A stretch of DNA of 64,000 bases from a bacterium (GTDB lineage Bacteria > Patescibacteriota > Minisyncoccia > Minisyncoccales > GWA2-46-15): the NCBI GenBank assembly GCA_030693425.1, contig JAUYAM010000002.1:81151-145150 (forward strand), read 5' to 3'. A program made the translations under genes and the position numbers. The notes beneath the pieces were generated by a model. That model had not been told where the DNA came from. It saw only the letters and a program-made list of their open reading frames with translations, and did not search any database. This document shows, one piece after another, positions 2,906-53,911 of the stretch. Position 1 is the first letter of the stretch. Every line of letters starts with the position of its first letter.

Positions 2906-5404
2906 TCAATTTTTTTGAGGGGCTGTGTTTTTTTCAACTTCGTTGACTTTCATGATCGTTTTTATTACGCTGTCAGGATTGACGGAAATTGATTCGATCC
3001 CCTCTTTGACTAGGAATTCGACAAAATCGGGAAAGTTCGCTGACGCTTCGCCGCAGATGCCGACGTATTTGTTTTTCTTTTGGCAGGCTTTGATAATTTG
3101 CGAAATCATTTGTTTTACGGCCTCGTTTCTTTCGTCGCCGATTTTGCTCAATTCAGCGTTGTCGCGGTCTAATCCCAAAACCAGCTGGGCTAAGTCATTT
3201 GATCCGATTGACATGCCGTCAAATATATTCAGGAATTCGTCGGCAAGCAAAATGTTTGAAGGAATTTCCGCCATGACCAATACCTTGAGTTTTTCCTCGC
3301 CCGCCGTAGCTTTAGCGGCTTCAGCAGAAGTGGGTTTCAAGCCATTTTTCGCCAAGAGATCCAGAACTTTCTTGCCTTCTTTCGGGGTGCGGCAAAAAGG
3401 CACCATCAGCCAAATATTCTTCAAGCCGAATTCATTGATTGCTTTTTTAATCGCTTGACACTCCATTTCAAAAGCCGGCTGGAATTTTTGGCTGTAATAT
3501 CTGGAAGCGCCGCGCAATCCTATCATTGGGTTTTGTTCCTCCGGCTCGAATAATTCTCCGCCAATCAAATTCCGGTACTCATTAGTTTTGAGGTCTGACA
3601 AACGGAGAATTATTGGCCTTGGCCAAAAGGCGGCGGCAATTTGTGAAATTCCCTCGGCCAGTTCATCGACAAAATATTCTTTTTTATCTTTATAACCAAC
3701 CGTTATTTCGTCTATTTGCTTGATTATTGTTTTTAATTTGGGATTTTGAATTTGGGATTTGTTTGGAACTTGGAACTTAGAACTTGGAACCTTGAGCTCT
3801 TTGTAGTGATAAAGAGCGAGCGGATGTATCTTTATCTTTTCCGCCAAAATGAACTCTGTTCTTGCCAGTCCCACGCCCGCAGCCGGCAGGAATGACGTTT
3901 TATAAGCGATTTCCGGGGCGCCGATATTAACCATTATCTTTGTTTTTGTTTCTGGTAGCTTCCGGAGATCCGATCTCCGGAAGCTAAAGGGAATTTTGCC
4001 CTTGAAAATCCGACCTTCTCCGGACGAACAATCAATGGTGGTTTCTTTGCCGGTTTTCAGCATTTTGGTTCCGGTTTTTGTTCCGACAACCGCAGGAATG
4101 CCTAGTTCCCGTGAAACAATAGCGGCGTGGGAGGTCCGACCTCCTTCGTCTGTGACGAGAGCTGAGGCGATTCGCATTGCCGGCAGCCAATCAGGATCAG
4201 TCATCTTCGTCACCAACACTTCGCCCTGTCTGAAATGGCTGATTTCGGCCGTGCTCTTTATAATTTTCGCCCTGCCTTGGCCGATTTTACTGCCGATGGC
4301 GATTCCTTTAAGAATCGGCTTTTGGCTGGTTTTTATTTCATACTCTTCAAAATAGTTCTGTGATTTGATTGCCTGGACTGTTTCCGGCCTTGATTGGACA
4401 ACGAACAATTTTCCGGTCTTGCCGTCCTTGGCCCATTCAATGTCCTGGGGCTGGCCATAGTGTTTTTCAATCAGGCAGGCCCACTTGGCCAGGGTCAGGA
4501 CTTCTTCTTCTGTCAGGGAAAATCTGGCTTGTTCGCCAGGAGACACCGCCATTTCTTTTAGGCCGCCTTTTTCATCAAAGACGTATTTTCTTGTTTTCCG
4601 GCCGAGATTTTTGACGATGACCGGCCGATAATCTTTGAGAGTTGGTTTGAAAACGCAGAATTCATCCGGAGTAATTTTTCCTTTGACGATTAGTTCTCCG
4701 ACGCCGTAGATTGAGTTAACTAGGACGACGTTTCTAAAACCGCTTTCCGTATCCAGAGTGAAAATGATGCCCGAGCTGGCCAGATCCGACCGAACCATTT
4801 TTTGAACGCCGACCGAAAGAGCGAATTTCAACTGGGGAATTTTGTTCTGTTCGCGGTAGGCAATGGCTCGGTCGGTGAAAATCGAGATCAGACTTTGTTT
4901 GACAGCCCAAAGCAGTTTTTCTTCGCCTTTGACGTTGAGAAAAGTTTCGAATTGTCCGGCAAAAGAAGCAGTCGGACTGTCTTCGGCCACGCCCGAGGTT
5001 CTGACGGCAACCTCGATTTCTTTTGAGCCGTATTTTTCTGACAGTTGTTGGTAGAATTTCCTCGTTTCATTTTCCAGGTCAGCTGGGATTCTGCTCTGTA
5101 AAATCAGCCGGCGGCAGAATTTTCCGGTTTTCTGCAGGCTGACAATGTTTTGCGGATTAAAATCCTTAAAAGCGCTCTCCAGTTTTTTCTGCAGGTGGTT
5201 TTCTTTTATGAAGCGCCAATAAGCCCGGCTGGTCAAGGCAAAGCCGTTCGGAACATTAATCCCCTGCCTACCGGCAGGCAGGCTTTTTCTGGTCAATTCG
5301 GAAAACATTTCCCCCAAAGAAGCGTTTTTTCCGCCCACCAGCGACACGTCTTTAATAGAAATATCTTTGAACCATAAAATCAATTTTTCTGTTTTCTTTT
5401 TCAT
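2906..5404 (-). CDS. ppsA: phosphoenolpyruvate synthase (pyruvate, water dikinase)
   Basis: 832 aa. N-terminal VGGKNASLGEM, phosphohistidine region GGRTSHAAIVSRELGIPAV, C-terminal PEP-utilising domain (GSNDLAQL). Confidence 0.9.
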   Translation of the reverse strand: MKKKTEKLILWFKDISIKDVSLVGGKNASLGEMFSELTRKSLPAGRQGINVPNGFALTSRAYWRFIKENHLQKKLESAFKDFNPQNIVSLQKTGKFCRRLILQSRIPADLENETRKFYQQLSEKYGSKEIEVAVRTSGVAEDSPTASFAGQFETFLNVKGEEKLLWAVKQSLISIFTDRAIAYREQNKIPQLKFALSVGVQKMVRSDLASSGIIFTLDTESGFRNVVLVNSIYGVGELIVKGKITPDEFCVFKPTLKDYRPVIVKNLGRKTRKYVFDEKGGLKEMAVSPGEQARFSLTEEEVLTLAKWACLIEKHYGQPQDIEWAKDGKTGKLFVVQSRPETVQAIKSQNYFEEYEIKTSQKPILKGIAIGSKIGQGRAKIIKSTAEISHFRQGEVLVTKMTDPDWLPAMRIASALVTDEGGRTSHAAIVSRELGIPAVVGTKTGTKMLKTGKETTIDCSSGEGRIFKGKIPFSFRRSDLRKLPETKTKIMVNIGAPEIAYKTSFLPAAGVGLARTEFILAEKIKIHPLALYHYKELKVPSSKFQVPNKSQIQNPKLKTIIKQIDEITVGYKDKKEYFVDELAEGISQIAAAFWPRPIILRLSDLKTNEYRNLIGGELFEPEEQNPMIGLRGASRYYSQKFQPAFEMECQAIKKAINEFGLKNIWLMVPFCRTPKEGKKVLDLLAKNGLKPTSAEAAKATAGEEKLKVLVMAEIPSNILLADEFLNIFDGMSIGSNDLAQLVLGLDRDNAELSKIGDERNEAVKQMISQIIKACQKKNKYVGICGEASANFPDFVEFLVKEGIESISVNPDSVIKTIMKVNEVEKNTAPQKN
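3737..3792. repeat. tandem heptamer array inside ppsA (about 4x TTTGGGA-like followed by 4x GGAACTT-like)
   Basis: Read directly: tttggga ttttgaa tttggga tttgttt ggaactt ggaactt agaactt ggaacct. Encodes the low-complexity insert KVPSSKFQVPNKSQIQNPKL. Confidence 0.85.
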
Positions 5405-5410
5405 TTTTTG

Positions 5411-5440
5411 TCACTCTACTGCTACGTAGCAGTAGAGTGA
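5411..5440. repeat. perfect 30-bp palindrome, core CTGCTACGTAGCAG (family member 1)
   Basis: tcactctactgctac|gtagcagtagagtga. Lies between the acs stop (5445) and the ppsA start (5404). Confidence 0.9.
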
Positions 5441-36284: not shown

Positions 36285-37349
36285 ATGAGAGAAGCTTTAG
36301 TTTACGAAAAACTGAAAGAAGGTTTGGTCCGCTGTCAGGTTTGCCAGAGGCGGTGTTTGGTTGCAGAGGGCAAGACCGGCTTTTGCTTGACAAAGAGAAA
36401 TAAAGGCGGAAAACTAGTCAGCCTGAATTACGGCCTGATCCGAGGAGTCCAATTGGACCCGATTGAGAAAAAGCCTTTTTACCATTTCCGTCCGGGCGCC
36501 TGGGTTCCTTCGATCGGAAACTTTGGCTGCAATTTTAGGTGCAAGCAGTGCCTGAACTGGTGGTGCTCCTGGGGCGAGCCCGCCCAAATTTTGCTCCGCA
36601 AAATTCTGGCGGGTGAACCGGCTGAAATAATTAAACCAGAGCAGCTTATATCTGATTTTAAAAAAGCCGGTTACAAAAGTATTGCTTTCACTTACAACGA
36701 GCCGGTTGTCTGGGCAGAATACGTTTTAGACGCTTCAAAGCTGGCAAAACAGGAAGGTTTTTTTACCGTCTTTGTCACCAACGGCTCCTGGACTAAGGAA
36801 ACCTTAGATAAGATCGGCAAGTTCATTGACGCCGCCAACATCGATTTCAAAGGCTTTTCTGATAAGACTTACAGCAAAATGGGCGCTTTTTTCGGGCAGG
36901 TTCCCGAGATGGCAAAGTACGCCCAGGAAAAACACAAAATCTTTATTGAGATTACCACTCTCTTGATTCCTGGAATCAACGACGGCAAGGAAGAGTTGGA
37001 AGAAATGACAAGATGGATGGTAAAGCACTTGGGCCCAAAGACTCCCTGGCATCTAAGCCGTTTTGACCCGGATCTTGCTCCCGACAAAAGCTTTCAGGCC
37101 CTGCCCCAGACTTCGGTTAAAGATTTAGACAAGGCTGCGGCCATCGGCAAGAAGTCGGGATTGAAGTTTATCTATATCTGGGCGCCGGGTCAGAATTTAC
37201 CCGGAGGCCTCTATGCCCAGGGCAATACCTTTTGTCCGAAGTGCGGCCAGCTGGCGATAGAAAGAACTGCCTGGCAGCCAAAGCTGGTTGGCATAGACAA
37301 AAATGGCTGTTGCTCAAATTGCCAAGAGGATTTAAATGTTAAATTATAA
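36285..37349 (+). CDS. amrS: AmmeMemoRadiSam system radical SAM enzyme
   Basis: CNFRCKQC (CxxxCxxC) cluster motif, N-terminal CQVCQRRC and C-terminal CPKCG...CSNC. PFL-activase-like architecture. Confidence 0.75.
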   Translation: MREALVYEKLKEGLVRCQVCQRRCLVAEGKTGFCLTKRNKGGKLVSLNYGLIRGVQLDPIEKKPFYHFRPGAWVPSIGNFGCNFRCKQCLNWWCSWGEPAQILLRKILAGEPAEIIKPEQLISDFKKAGYKSIAFTYNEPVVWAEYVLDASKLAKQEGFFTVFVTNGSWTKETLDKIGKFIDAANIDFKGFSDKTYSKMGAFFGQVPEMAKYAQEKHKIFIEITTLLIPGINDGKEELEEMTRWMVKHLGPKTPWHLSRFDPDLAPDKSFQALPQTSVKDLDKAAAIGKKSGLKFIYIWAPGQNLPGGLYAQGNTFCPKCGQLAIERTAWQPKLVGIDKNGCCSNCQEDLNVKL

Positions 37350-38018: not shown

Positions 38019-38050
38019 CTCACTTCACTGCTACGTAGCAGTGAAGTGAG
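38019..38050. repeat. perfect 32-bp palindrome, core CTGCTACGTAGCAG (family member 2)
   Basis: ctcacttcactgctac|gtagcagtgaagtgag, 48 nt after the stop at 37971. Confidence 0.9.
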
Positions 38051-38633: not shown

Positions 38634-38663
38634 TCAGTATACTGCTACGTAGCAGTATACTGA
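38634..38663. repeat. perfect 30-bp palindrome, core CTGCTACGTAGCAG (family member 3)
   Basis: tcagtatactgctac|gtagcagtatactga, 4 nt after the stop at 38630. Confidence 0.9.
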
Positions 38664-52498: not shown

Positions 52499-52756
52499 CT
52501 ATGAATAAAGTTCTGAATGGGATCCAATGGTGATAAATATGGAGATTTTCTCTTTGGCTTGGAAAATCGCTCTGTAATTCCCTGTTATGTTGATGCTTCG
52601 GCATCCGGGGAACGCCCGCCCTACAAAATGATTGTTAAGGGATGGATCGAAGGGGTTATTTAGAAATATATCGAGGCGTTTTTGGAATTGCGTCTTGATA
52701 TTATTCGGCAGTTTACTAAACTTCTTTTTGAAATTTTTATGGAAAACAGCCTCCAT
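52499..52756 (-). CDS. type II toxin, RelE/YafQ-family mRNA interferase
   Basis: 85 aa. KKFSKLP...RLD.FL.NPFDPSL..H...G....RSINITGNYRAIF pattern. 4-nt gap to the upstream antitoxin. Confidence 0.7.
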   Translation of the reverse strand: MEAVFHKNFKKKFSKLPNNIKTQFQKRLDIFLNNPFDPSLNNHFVGRAFPGCRSINITGNYRAIFQAKEKISIFITIGSHSELYS

Positions 52757-52760
52757 GATT

Positions 52761-53036
52761 CTAACGCTTCAAATATGTCAGGGCTTTCTTCGCGTCTTTA
52801 AAAGCGGGAGAAAGATTTTTATTCCTTTTGATGTCTTGAGTCGCTTGTTCTATTTCTTGCTTGGTGTTTTGATTAAACGCAAGATCGTGACCCAAGATAA
52901 TATTGAGCTTATTCTCCGCGTACGCTTTCGCGGCAAGCTTAAGAATCATTGAAAAAGGCACGCCATCGGCTTGCGCTTTTTTCATGGCGCGCTCTTTGAT
53001 TTGCGAATCAATGCTGAAAATCATTTTGCTTGTCAT
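52761..53036 (-). CDS. type II antitoxin, RelB/DinJ-like (ribbon-helix-helix)
   Basis: 91 aa. An N-terminal beta-strand and helices (FSIDSQIKERAMKKAQADGVPFSMILKLAAKAYA) resemble DinJ. Confidence 0.65.
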   Translation of the reverse strand: MTSKMIFSIDSQIKERAMKKAQADGVPFSMILKLAAKAYAENKLNIILGHDLAFNQNTKQEIEQATQDIKRNKNLSPAFKDAKKALTYLKR

Positions 53037-53113: not shown

Positions 53114-53365
53114 TCAACTCTGATTTTTTATCAAATTAAGTTTCTTCTCACGGCGCCACCCCTTTATTTCTGATTCATAGCGCCTAGCGTCTTTAAGGGT
53201 GTTGAACTCCTTTGAAAACTTCAAAACCACAGGTCTTCTTAATTTTGTATAATGCGCGCCCCATTTTGAATTATTATGTTGTCTTATCCGTTTTGTTAAA
53301 TCATTCGTACATCCAACATATAATGACTGGTCTGCGCACTCAACTATGTAAACGTAATATGACAT
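53114..53365 (-). CDS. GIY-YIG nuclease-family protein (UPF0213-like), copy B
   Basis: Start trimmed to MSYYVYIVECADQSLYVGCTNDLTKRIRQHN. The longer track ORF reads through the tRNA gene. Confidence 0.8.
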   Translation of the reverse strand: MSYYVYIVECADQSLYVGCTNDLTKRIRQHNNSKWGAHYTKLRRPVVLKFSKEFNTLKDARRYESEIKGWRREKKLNLIKNQS

Positions 53366-53485
53366 GGCACTTCGTCGCCAAGGCTCCTCAGTGTCTTCAA
53401 TTTTCTGTATATTAAATTGGTCGAAATCCTGAGTGCAGCGAAGGATGTAGACTCTGAAATTTGAGCAGAAGCGAAAATTGAAGAG

Positions 53486-53556
53486 CTGCCGGGGAACGAA
53501 TCGAACGTTCATTAGAGCTTTCAAAGAGCTCCGTCCTACCATTAGACGACCCGGCA
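53486..53556 (-). tRNA. tRNA-Gln(UUG): tRNA-Gln (anticodon UUG)
   Basis: Hand-folded cloverleaf: TGCCGGG TC GTCT AATGGTA GGAC G GAGCT CTTTGAA AGCTC TAAT GAACG TTCGATT CGTTC CCCGGCA G. U1:A72 and G73 as in bacterial tRNA-Gln. CCA is not encoded. Confidence 0.9.
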
Positions 53557-53579
53557 ATATCTATTGCGCACTTAAAGCA

Positions 53580-53816
53580 TCAAAATATCTTCTTTAAAAA
53601 TTTACGGCCGCTGGCAGATTTCAAGTATTTTTCTCTTTTTCTGGCACCAATGAAGTTATTAAACTTTTCCGTATAAATAATTGTCCACGGCATGTATCTT
53701 TTTGTGTAAGCATGTTTTCCAGAATTATGTTCCTCTAGTCTTCTCTTAATATCATTAGTTACTCCAATATAGCTTTTATTAGCAATATCGCTTTTGAGCA
53801 GATAAACGATAAACAT
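53580..53816 (-). CDS. GIY-YIG nuclease-family protein (UPF0213-like), copy A
   Basis: Start trimmed to MFIVYLLKSDIANKSYIGVTNDIKRRLEEHN. The longer track ORF reads through the tRNA-derived sequence. Confidence 0.8.
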   Translation of the reverse strand: MFIVYLLKSDIANKSYIGVTNDIKRRLEEHNSGKHAYTKRYMPWTIIYTEKFNNFIGARKREKYLKSASGRKFLKKIF

Positions 53817-53824
53817 ATTTTTTG

Positions 53825-53887
53825 GTCCTACCATTAGACCCGCCTCGCATCGACGAGCGAATGCGAGTCGAGGCGGGCGACCCGGCA
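53825..53887 (-). pseudogene. partial duplicate of the tRNA-Gln 5' part (nt 1-24) interrupted by a 39-nt hairpin
   Basis: TGCCGGGTCG [cccgcctcgactcgcattcgctcgtcgatgcgaggcggg] TCTAATGGTAGGAC. Identical to the acceptor 5' strand plus D-arm of the intact gene. Confidence 0.85.
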
Positions 53888-53911
53888 ATGTCAAAACCCA
53901 AATACCAAAAA

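Follow-up and report, generated by a model that had tools for sequence, protein, structure and literature searches.

Small GIY-YIG cassettes nested in tRNA loci across bacterial phyla, with a conserved palindrome as their putative partner

Free-standing GIY-YIG endonucleases take part in intronless and collaborative homing, as with SegF and SegG of phage T4 and with cyanophage F-CphI, which is paired with the psbA intron. In fungal mitochondria, mobile GIY-YIG open reading frames (ORFs) insert at the ends of genes together with a duplicate of the part that they displace, as in Allomyces atp6-ORF360. Slx1 enzymes cut branched DNA. Among palindromic elements, the highly repeated repetitive extragenic palindromes (REPs) are associated with RAYTs, which are HUH Y1 transposases. 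Here, we analyzed a stretch of 64,000 nucleotides (nt) from a patescibacterial genome (GenBank assembly GCA_030693425.1, contig JAUYAM010000002.1, positions 81,151 to 145,150; hereafter the window), in which a tRNA-Gln gene is flanked by two small GIY-YIG genes, A and B, and a partial copy of the same tRNA gene is split by a GC-rich palindrome that we call H. Based on sequence comparison, we favor the interpretation, with a probability of roughly 0.6, that the two GIY-YIG genes belong to selfish cassettes of ~0.3 kb, of a widespread class that resides inside tRNA loci, and that H is the cis partner of the gene A nuclease.

A sequence-only reading of the window had placed a tRNA-Gln between two GIY-YIG genes, and ARAGORN, Rfam and Pfam confirmed this arrangement: tRNA-Gln(UUG) is the single tRNA in the window, and the products of both neighboring genes score well above the PF01541 (GIY-YIG) cut-off of 22.6 bits (Table 1). 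On the minus strand, the order is dnaX, a short flank (U), arm a, H, arm b, gene A, tRNA-Gln, the gene B leader and gene B, followed by a toxin gene with its small partner and then obg. Arm a (ATTGCCGGGTCG) is an exact copy of tRNA nt 1-10 and the two nucleotides preceding them, arm b (TCTAATGGTAGGAC) is an exact copy of nt 11-24, and a 39-nt GC-rich hairpin, unique in the window, separates the two. The copy of nt 1-24 broken after nt 10 was thus as the sequence-only reading had described it, and the spacings were read as 8 nt (caaaaaat) from arm b to the gene A ATG, 23 nt from the gene A stop to the tRNA, and 119 nt, earlier given as ~120, from the tRNA to gene B. When sequences were shuffled, 0 of 100 shuffles reproduced two window matches per pattern (the intact gene and the partial copy). 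The shuffles and the uniqueness of the matches ruled out chance, and they also ruled out that the 24-nt match is part of a longer unrelated repeat, a possibility raised in the sequence-only reading.

Table 1. Features of the tRNA-Gln locus and of the solo palindrome, in window coordinates.
Feature	Coordinates	Strand	Basis
Ancestral flank U, dnaX stop to partial tRNA copy	53890-53911	-	By-eye likeness (unaligned) to the L093 dnaX-tRNA-Gln spacer
Arm a: 2 nt of flank and tRNA-Gln nt 1-10	53878-53889	-	Identical to 53547-53558 over 12 nt
Palindromic element H, long form, CCCGCCTCG ACTCG ... CGAGGCGGG	53839-53877		Unique in window; folds as hairpin
Arm b: tRNA-Gln nt 11-24	53825-53838	-	Identical to 53533-53546 over 14 nt
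GIY-YIG gene A, 78 aa and stop, predicted minimal Slx1/UPF0213-like nuclease	53580-53816	-	PF01541, 58.7 bits
Spacer from gene A stop to intact tRNA, 23 nt	53557-53579	-	Sequence read; 0-30 nt in related loci
Intact tRNA-Gln(UUG)	53485-53556	-	ARAGORN; RF00005, 59.8 bits
Gene B leader; arm 53473-53484 TCTTCAATTTTC pairs with 53394-53405 GAAAATTGAAGA	53366-53484	-	Covarying helix
GIY-YIG gene B, 83 aa and stop, of a sister family on tRNA-Gln 3' side	53114-53365	-	PF01541, 66.2 bits
Solo short-form H CCTGCCTACCGGCAGGCAGG in ppsA-like gene	5263-5282		In-frame 7-aa insertion SLPAGRQ

The linkage of a GIY-YIG gene, a tRNA and a partial duplicate proved to be systematic when it was surveyed beyond the window. 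An alignment of 45 gene A homologues retrieved 80 loci from 80 species representatives (loci are designated by L numbers), and ARAGORN found a co-oriented tRNA within 120 nt of the ORF in 65 of them. In 56 loci the start of the tRNA is 0-120 nt downstream of the ORF, and in the 9 others its end is 1-108 nt upstream. As a control, distant GIY-YIG homologues on viral contigs had a tRNA within 150 nt in 2 of 80 loci. The linked tRNAs comprise five Arg, Ala, four Leu, two Gln, Asn, Met, Ser, Pro, Val, His, Gly, Thr, Cys and Glu, at least 20 tRNA species overall, and the hosts include Patescibacteria, Bacteroidota, Ignavibacteria, Planctomycetota, Omnitrophota, Acidobacteria and others. The ORFs group by tRNA type: the best pair of ORFs beside different tRNAs is 82% identical and involves two Gln isoacceptors, and all other such pairs are at most 72% identical, suggesting that hops between tRNAs are rare.

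We counted partial copies by eye, after marking where the 160 nt ahead of each ORF match the tRNA that follows it. Of 54 assessable loci, 53 have a 5' copy of this tRNA that carries a GC palindrome of the H family, and the copy usually begins 0-9 nt ahead of tRNA nt 1. The GC palindrome mostly cuts the copy into two blocks; in L020, L034 and L074 it follows an uninterrupted nt 1-32, and in L016, L022, L026, L065 and L072 it stands in place of the D-loop. The nine loci with an upstream tRNA have the mirror form, in which the intact tRNA is followed by the ORF and then by a 3' tRNA copy split by a GC-rich hairpin, with H-type ends in most of the nine. The mirror copy of L040, for example, reads nt 44-52, CCTGCCTGCCGGCAAGGCAGG, nt 53-76 and the terminator flank. 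The general rule is that the ORF, co-oriented with the tRNA, has the intact tRNA on one side and the partial copy on the other, and that H is always in the partial copy. The sequence-only reading had put the break at the boundary of the D-arm and the anticodon stem; this position is not fixed, as H follows nt 7, 9, 10, 11, 15, 18, 22-23 or 32, depending on lineage.

The partial copies also occur in other arrangements. Whole units form tandem arrays in L034 (four units with a 316-bp period), L016 (three) and L006, and in L034 a 65-nt block of both arms and H is identical in all four units at an ORF synonymous divergence (dS) of 0.16-0.19. In each Gln cassette, the partial copy has the same acceptor-stem sequence as the local tRNA. 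The partial copy of L023 has the D-arm of a tRNA-Arg allele from other species (L034, L020), unlike the adjacent tRNA, which indicates that much of a partial copy can arrive with the element. H-split tRNA pieces were also seen without an ORF, as repeated 3' fragments that each follow an H in L012 (307-430) and as two tandem 164-bp units in L006 (3657-3990). L081 holds a second, nearly full tRNA-Arg copy at 3298-3420, with H between nt 9 and 10.

The palindrome has conserved ends, CCYGCC...GGCRGG. It occurs in a short form (CCTGCCTGCCGGCAGGCAGG), a flavobacterial long form (CCCGCCCG TACCGAAC ... GTTCGGGCGGG) and a patescibacterial long form (CCCGCCTCG ACTCGC ... GCGAGGCGGG), to which the window H belongs. 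Long forms fold into a GC stem of 7-9 bp, a one-sided bulge of 4-5 nt (5 nt in the window) and an inner stem-loop, and either orientation with respect to the ORF is found among them (5:4 and 8:4). Because most long forms have this bulge, ungapped palindrome detectors undercounted H, and we replaced them with a motif-pair test with controls. In 43 of 54 loci, the strict motif pair was found in the 150 nt that precede the ATG, compared with 4 of 677 control windows of the same loci, and the median distance from H to the ATG was 24 nt. The density of H-like matches was 10.9 per 100 kb in the family A loci and 0.7 in the viral control, a ~15-fold difference, and two of the three viral-control matches adjoin family members. 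A hairpin with so conserved a signature is not an accident of decay. H also occurs in multiple copies, with tandem repeats of three in L015 (~2880-2990) and four in L030 (~2250-2360), and one H is nested within another in L051 (2912-2967). A function of H as a transcription terminator was rejected, as H lacks a T-run and no terminator was called at it. Rfam matched only the tRNA, with no known RNA family in the hairpin or the gene B leader.

Presence and absence of the cassette at a syntenic site, which is looked for in homing genes, were both found. The site is filled in the window and in L082-L089, where gene A is 91% identical and the same cassette follows dnaX. It is empty in L090-L092 and L257, in which tRNA-Gln lies 4-7 nt after dnaX, and in L093 and L094, in which tRNA-Gln lies 34 nt after dnaX and cassette A is absent. 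L093 has a B-type gene alone, downstream of the tRNA, and the L094 contig stops at the tRNA. The order DnaB-CysS-GtrA-DnaX is conserved in the empty relatives. The empty syntenic sites indicate that the adjacency of dnaX and tRNA-Gln is ancestral and that cassette A is an insertion. In addition, flank U, which resembles the L093 spacer by eye (unaligned), abuts the partial copy, as expected if the insertion displaced the old 5' end. The anatomy recurs across phyla and tRNA identities, and empty sites exist in syntenic relatives. The earlier proposal that a cassette inserted at the tRNA is broadly upheld by the linkage, the empty sites and the flank; decay of the fragment and a break at the boundary of the D-arm and the anticodon stem, which were parts of the same proposal, did not survive, and the hairpin is not incidental.

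Decay in particular is at odds with the substitution pattern. Between the window and L082, gene A has diverged with a dS of 0.42 and a nonsynonymous divergence (dN) of 0.044 (dN/dS 0.10), and other ORF pairs have ratios of 0.08-0.17. Over the same interval, H differs at 1 of 39 nt, compared with ~12 expected at the synonymous rate (binomial P ~6e-6), and the arms differ at 1 of 26 nt. The single change in the arms, C4-to-G, is also found in L082's own tRNA, with a compensating 3' change. From these comparisons, the displaced 5' part has not been left to decay; H and the tRNA arms are far more conserved than synonymous sites, and the gene A ORF is under purifying selection, with a dN/dS of ~0.1.

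We also compared the gene A protein with characterized GIY-YIG proteins. Among its 45 homologues, Y16, G18, R26, H30 and E62 are invariant and Y5 is conserved in at least 90%; the catalytic residues are those that we take to correspond to Y6, Y17, R27 and E75 of I-TevI. The nearest solved relatives by sequence are the UPF0213 proteins EF2693 (1YWL, E 1.8e-10) and BH0048 (1ZG2, E 2e-9), and then SLX1. The AlphaFold2 model of gene A has a predicted local distance difference test score (pLDDT) of 94, and Foldseek ranked 1ZG2 and the Slx1 nuclease domain (template modeling score, TM, 0.70-0.74; root-mean-square deviation 1.7-1.9 A) above I-TevI (TM 0.56). The model therefore predicts an Slx1/UPF0213-like fold, in a standalone branch of 78-83 aa proteins without accessory domains, to which UvrC and I-TevI are less close. 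The whole 78-aa protein is the catalytic fold, with no C-terminal DNA-binding domain or linker of the I-TevI type, and its TIGR01453 score of 21.7 bits is below the cut-off of 56. PHROGs gave a generic label, homing endonuclease with GIY-YIG motif. Two other assignments were considered and rejected: PADLOC returned weak, domain-level matches to defense systems, and viral contigs carried distant homologues, with a few close ones at contig ends near tRNAs, which does not support phage carriage. In a 2006 survey of the superfamily, prokaryotic Slx1-like members are minimal standalone domains, proposed to be ancestral, and one is fused to the tRNA Gm18 methyltransferase TrmH; a term search of the survey gave no mention of linkage to tRNA genes or palindromes (PMC1564403).

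Gene B is not a second copy of the gene A cassette. The two proteins are 34% identical, and gene B falls in a sister family specific for the tRNA-Gln 3' side. With three aligned B-type proteins as the query, we obtained 80 metagenome loci (69-81% identity), and 54 of 66 assessable loci had a co-oriented tRNA upstream, with a median gap of 118 nt. These tRNAs were Gln-UUG in 30 loci, Gln-CUG in 23 and Met in 1. The B leader begins at the tRNA 3' end and contains a helix of 8-12 bp, one arm of which pairs with sequence just before a conserved CACTGAGGAGC...GACGAAGTG box. RNAalifold found no consensus in a gappy alignment of the family B leaders, and the helix was then tested explicitly. Across 27 loci, 88% of cells were paired and 26 cells had changed on both sides, which 0 of 500 shuffles reached, and slid controls gave 36-65%; covarying pairs include TCTTCGTCGC/GCGACGAAGA, TCTTCAATTTTC/GAAAATTGAAGA and ACTTCTTC/GAAGAAGT. 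In some B loci, the ORF is followed by 3' fragments of tRNA-Gln or by a short H. By these comparisons, gene B appears to be a sister cassette on the 3' side of tRNA-Gln with a different structured element, and its leader helix may be the family B counterpart of H. The sandwiched position of tRNA-Gln in the window is explained by two cassette families, each of which uses one of its sides.

Each of the closest described systems shares part of this anatomy. As in SegF, SegG and F-CphI, the nuclease gene lies beside its presumed target and is patchy at the syntenic site, and as in F-CphI, an insert interrupts target-like sequence near the nuclease gene, an ORF-less intron there and H here. Unlike those enzymes, which have DNA-binding domains, the cassette proteins are bare Slx1-branch catalytic domains of 78-90 aa, and the interrupter is a non-splicing palindrome in a spare partial gene copy, with the intact target remaining. 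The Allomyces atp6-ORF360 type is alike in that a partial duplicate and a nuclease ORF keep the host gene working with the displaced fragment beside it. However, those elements occupy organellar protein-coding genes, lack a signature palindrome and leave the displaced fragment to decay, whereas here the genes are bacterial tRNA genes and the fragment is conserved and always split by H. The UPF0213/Slx1-like proteins EF2693 and BH0048 match in sequence and fold as minimal domains; Slx1 acts with Slx4 on branched DNA, and such a partner is known for Slx1 and not for the cassette nuclease. As with REPs and RAYTs, a short GC palindrome adjoins a small nuclease-type gene and has solo copies elsewhere, but the adjacent enzyme is a GIY-YIG protein rather than an HUH Y1 transposase, and the copy number of H appears to be low, with two in the 64-kb window. 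None of these analogues, nor the integrase islands considered below, joins a conserved palindrome and a split tRNA fragment that is maintained to a nuclease consisting of a bare Slx1-like domain. In the portion of the literature covered by our searches, we found no description of a tRNA-nested GIY-YIG/H architecture and no tRNA-linked role for standalone Slx1-like/UPF0213 proteins. This kind of cassette is widespread and apparently undescribed.

If the locus is a pair of selfish cassettes, as we favor, the steps could be as follows. Cassette A keeps the tRNA intact, and the host would lose nothing. Entry and spread would proceed as in intronless or collaborative homing, by homology-directed recombination of the tRNA-derived arms with a tRNA gene that has no cassette, and only those outcomes would survive in which one tRNA stays intact. 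A single exchange or repair event would leave a 5' or a 3' partial duplicate according to the side of H on which it is resolved. H would be the cis partner of a structure-selective nuclease: when arm a, H and arm b pair with a tRNA gene that has no H, the palindrome would be looped out as a branch and present a substrate of the Slx1 type. H may also disrupt the spare copy of the target and shorten a direct repeat that could delete the cassette. Expression probably rides on transcription of dnaX and the tRNA, since we found no sigma-70-like promoter between dnaX and gene A, flank U included.

Several points weigh against this interpretation. All of the evidence is comparative, and cleavage and mobility are predictions from sequence. 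The catalytic domain of 78 aa comes without a DNA-binding domain of the I-TevI type, which makes sequence-specific homing hard to picture without the help of a nucleic-acid structure. The intact tRNA beside the cassette holds any target within the tRNA, and self-immunity of the cassette allele is thus not evident from its sequence. The site of H in the tRNA ranges between nt 7 and nt 32 without an evident target consensus, and the count of 53 in 54 loci was made by eye, with a strict ungapped detector recovering only 29. The model gives no route by which a new tRNA would gain matching arms. Finally, hops between tRNAs are rare, and a long vertical residence would fit a host function as well.

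The last point leads to the strongest competing explanation, that the nuclease and the H-split pseudo-tRNA are a domesticated unit that benefits the host and is co-transcribed with the tRNA, rather than a mobile parasite. Possible roles include a decoy or operator for the nuclease, a pair resembling an RNA antitoxin and its toxin, and quality control or defense of tRNA genes or tRNAs. Strong purifying selection, the long pairing of a single ORF clade with a single tRNA type in different genera and arms kept identical to the local tRNA would all be expected of such a unit. The tandem H copies in L015 and L030 recall repeat-type RNA antitoxins, and I-TevI provides a precedent for an operator that resembles a homing site. 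The fusion of an Slx1-like domain to TrmH also speaks for such a unit (PMC1564403). Against domestication, the cassette is patchy at a syntenic site among close relatives, whole cassettes form tandem arrays, at least 20 tRNA species are used, and no convincing match to a defense-system model was obtained. H lies 5' or 3' of the ORF in either orientation, which argues against a fixed role at the RNA level, and it has also inserted into ppsA. We therefore consider a domesticated unit unlikely, though the best of the alternatives.

The ppsA insertion bears on a second alternative. The solo H of the window lies within a phosphoenolpyruvate synthase-like (ppsA-like) ORF (2906-5404, minus strand), and the SLPAGRQ insertion that it encodes is found neither in the solved PpsA 2OLS nor in any of the 35 homologues having both anchors, which have 10 residues between the anchors compared with 17 in the window. 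A 20-mer identical to this solo H is intergenic in the Dokdonia locus L011 (366-385). Such copies could mean that two unrelated selfish elements are present, an ordinary free-standing homing ORF and an independent miniature palindrome mobilized by other means, with H accumulating in dispensable tRNA fragments because insertions into functional tRNAs are lethal. The H in the second full tRNA copy of L081 and the ORF-less fragments of L012 and L006 fit this explanation, as do the differences in H position and orientation among related Gln cassettes, which imply repeated independent insertions. Independence is difficult to reconcile, however, with a frequency near saturation (53 of 54 loci by eye, and the 43 of 54 against 4 of 677 for the strict motif), with the ~15-fold enrichment of H-like sequence beside these ORFs over control DNA, or with the short median distance of 24 nt to the ATG. 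H, its loop included, changes well below the synonymous rate, and the association spans phyla as distant as Patescibacteria and Bacteroidota. We judge two unrelated elements to be slightly less probable than domestication.

Less probable again is a reading in which the H-split tRNA fragment is a nucleic-acid specificity module for a minimal structure-selective nuclease. The arms, as DNA or as transcript, would pair with a tRNA gene that has no H, and H, extruded as a junction, would recruit the Slx1-like enzyme to cut at this point, driving both homing and the spread of H; the target would be set by base pairing of the arms and not by contacts between protein and DNA, and the enzyme would be a GIY-YIG nuclease guided by two arms and a hairpin scaffold. 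The weakest explanation is that the locus is an attL/attR scar of a mostly deleted integrase island or prophage with the GIY-YIG gene as leftover cargo. Intact and partial tRNA copies flanking inserted DNA are the classic signature of such islands (PMC9897764), but those are kilobase-scale, encode an integrase, usually duplicate the tRNA 3' end and have no palindrome, whereas here no integrase or other recombinase is present, the GIY-YIG gene is the only ORF between the two tRNA copies, the duplicate is 5' (the main form) or 3' and split by H, units recur in arrays with a 316-bp period, and the uniform ~0.3-kb architecture with the same content in 80 species effectively refutes a scar.

Further observations concern the surroundings of these elements. 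A 35-nt palindrome with H-like ends (CCCGCCCAAATTTTGC TCC GCAAAATTCTGGCGGG) lies at 36579-36613 in a radical-SAM-like ORF (36285-37349, plus strand); the closest homologue, P0321, has a segment of similar length and sequence, and an H insertion at this site is therefore not supported. Separate perfect palindromes of 30-32 nt with the core ACTGCTACGTAGCAGT are present at 5411-5440, 38019-38050 and 38634-38663, one of them just upstream of the ppsA start. A third type of GIY-YIG gene, encoding 88 aa, lies directly after the dnaX stop and before cassette A in L082 (590-856), and also in L083 and L085-L089, with two small GC hairpins, CCGCCTCTTCGGCGG and GCGCCGATGAGGCGC, after the gene; the window is without this gene. 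L082 has gene B and L083 lacks it. Between these two loci the B leader is partly duplicated, and the downstream genes diverge right after it (VTT domain and PG_binding, respectively), which suggests a hotspot of rearrangement 3' of tRNA-Gln. In L091 and L092, a Zn_ribbon_recom ORF (4580-4864, minus strand), a recombinase fragment, adjoins the empty dnaX-tRNA-Gln site, and tRNA-Gln may also serve as an integrase target.

Downstream of gene B, the toxin (52499-52756) matches ParE_toxin at 27.5 bits (cut-off 23) and YafQ at 25.1 bits, below its cut-off of 30, and the putative antitoxin (52761-53036), its upstream partner, has no Pfam match. These genes, called dinJ/yafQ-like in the sequence-only reading, can be assigned as a pair at the level of the ParE/RelE superfamily. 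The pair is preceded by a perfect 12/12 sigma-70-like promoter at 53071-53043 (minus strand), and in the relative L093 the corresponding position is taken by a HicA toxin.

Taken together, these results assign a genomic context and a likely biology to standalone Slx1-like/UPF0213 GIY-YIG proteins, and they point to parasitism of essential tRNA genes across phyla without inactivation of those genes. The signature palindrome explains many partial tRNA matches, and it also inserts in-frame into proteins. A split tRNA fragment, CCYGCC...GGCRGG and an ORF of ~80 aa abutting a tRNA together form a signature that could be used to annotate thousands of genomes. If the arms and the palindrome do direct the nuclease, the cassette would be a very small nucleic-acid-programmable system.

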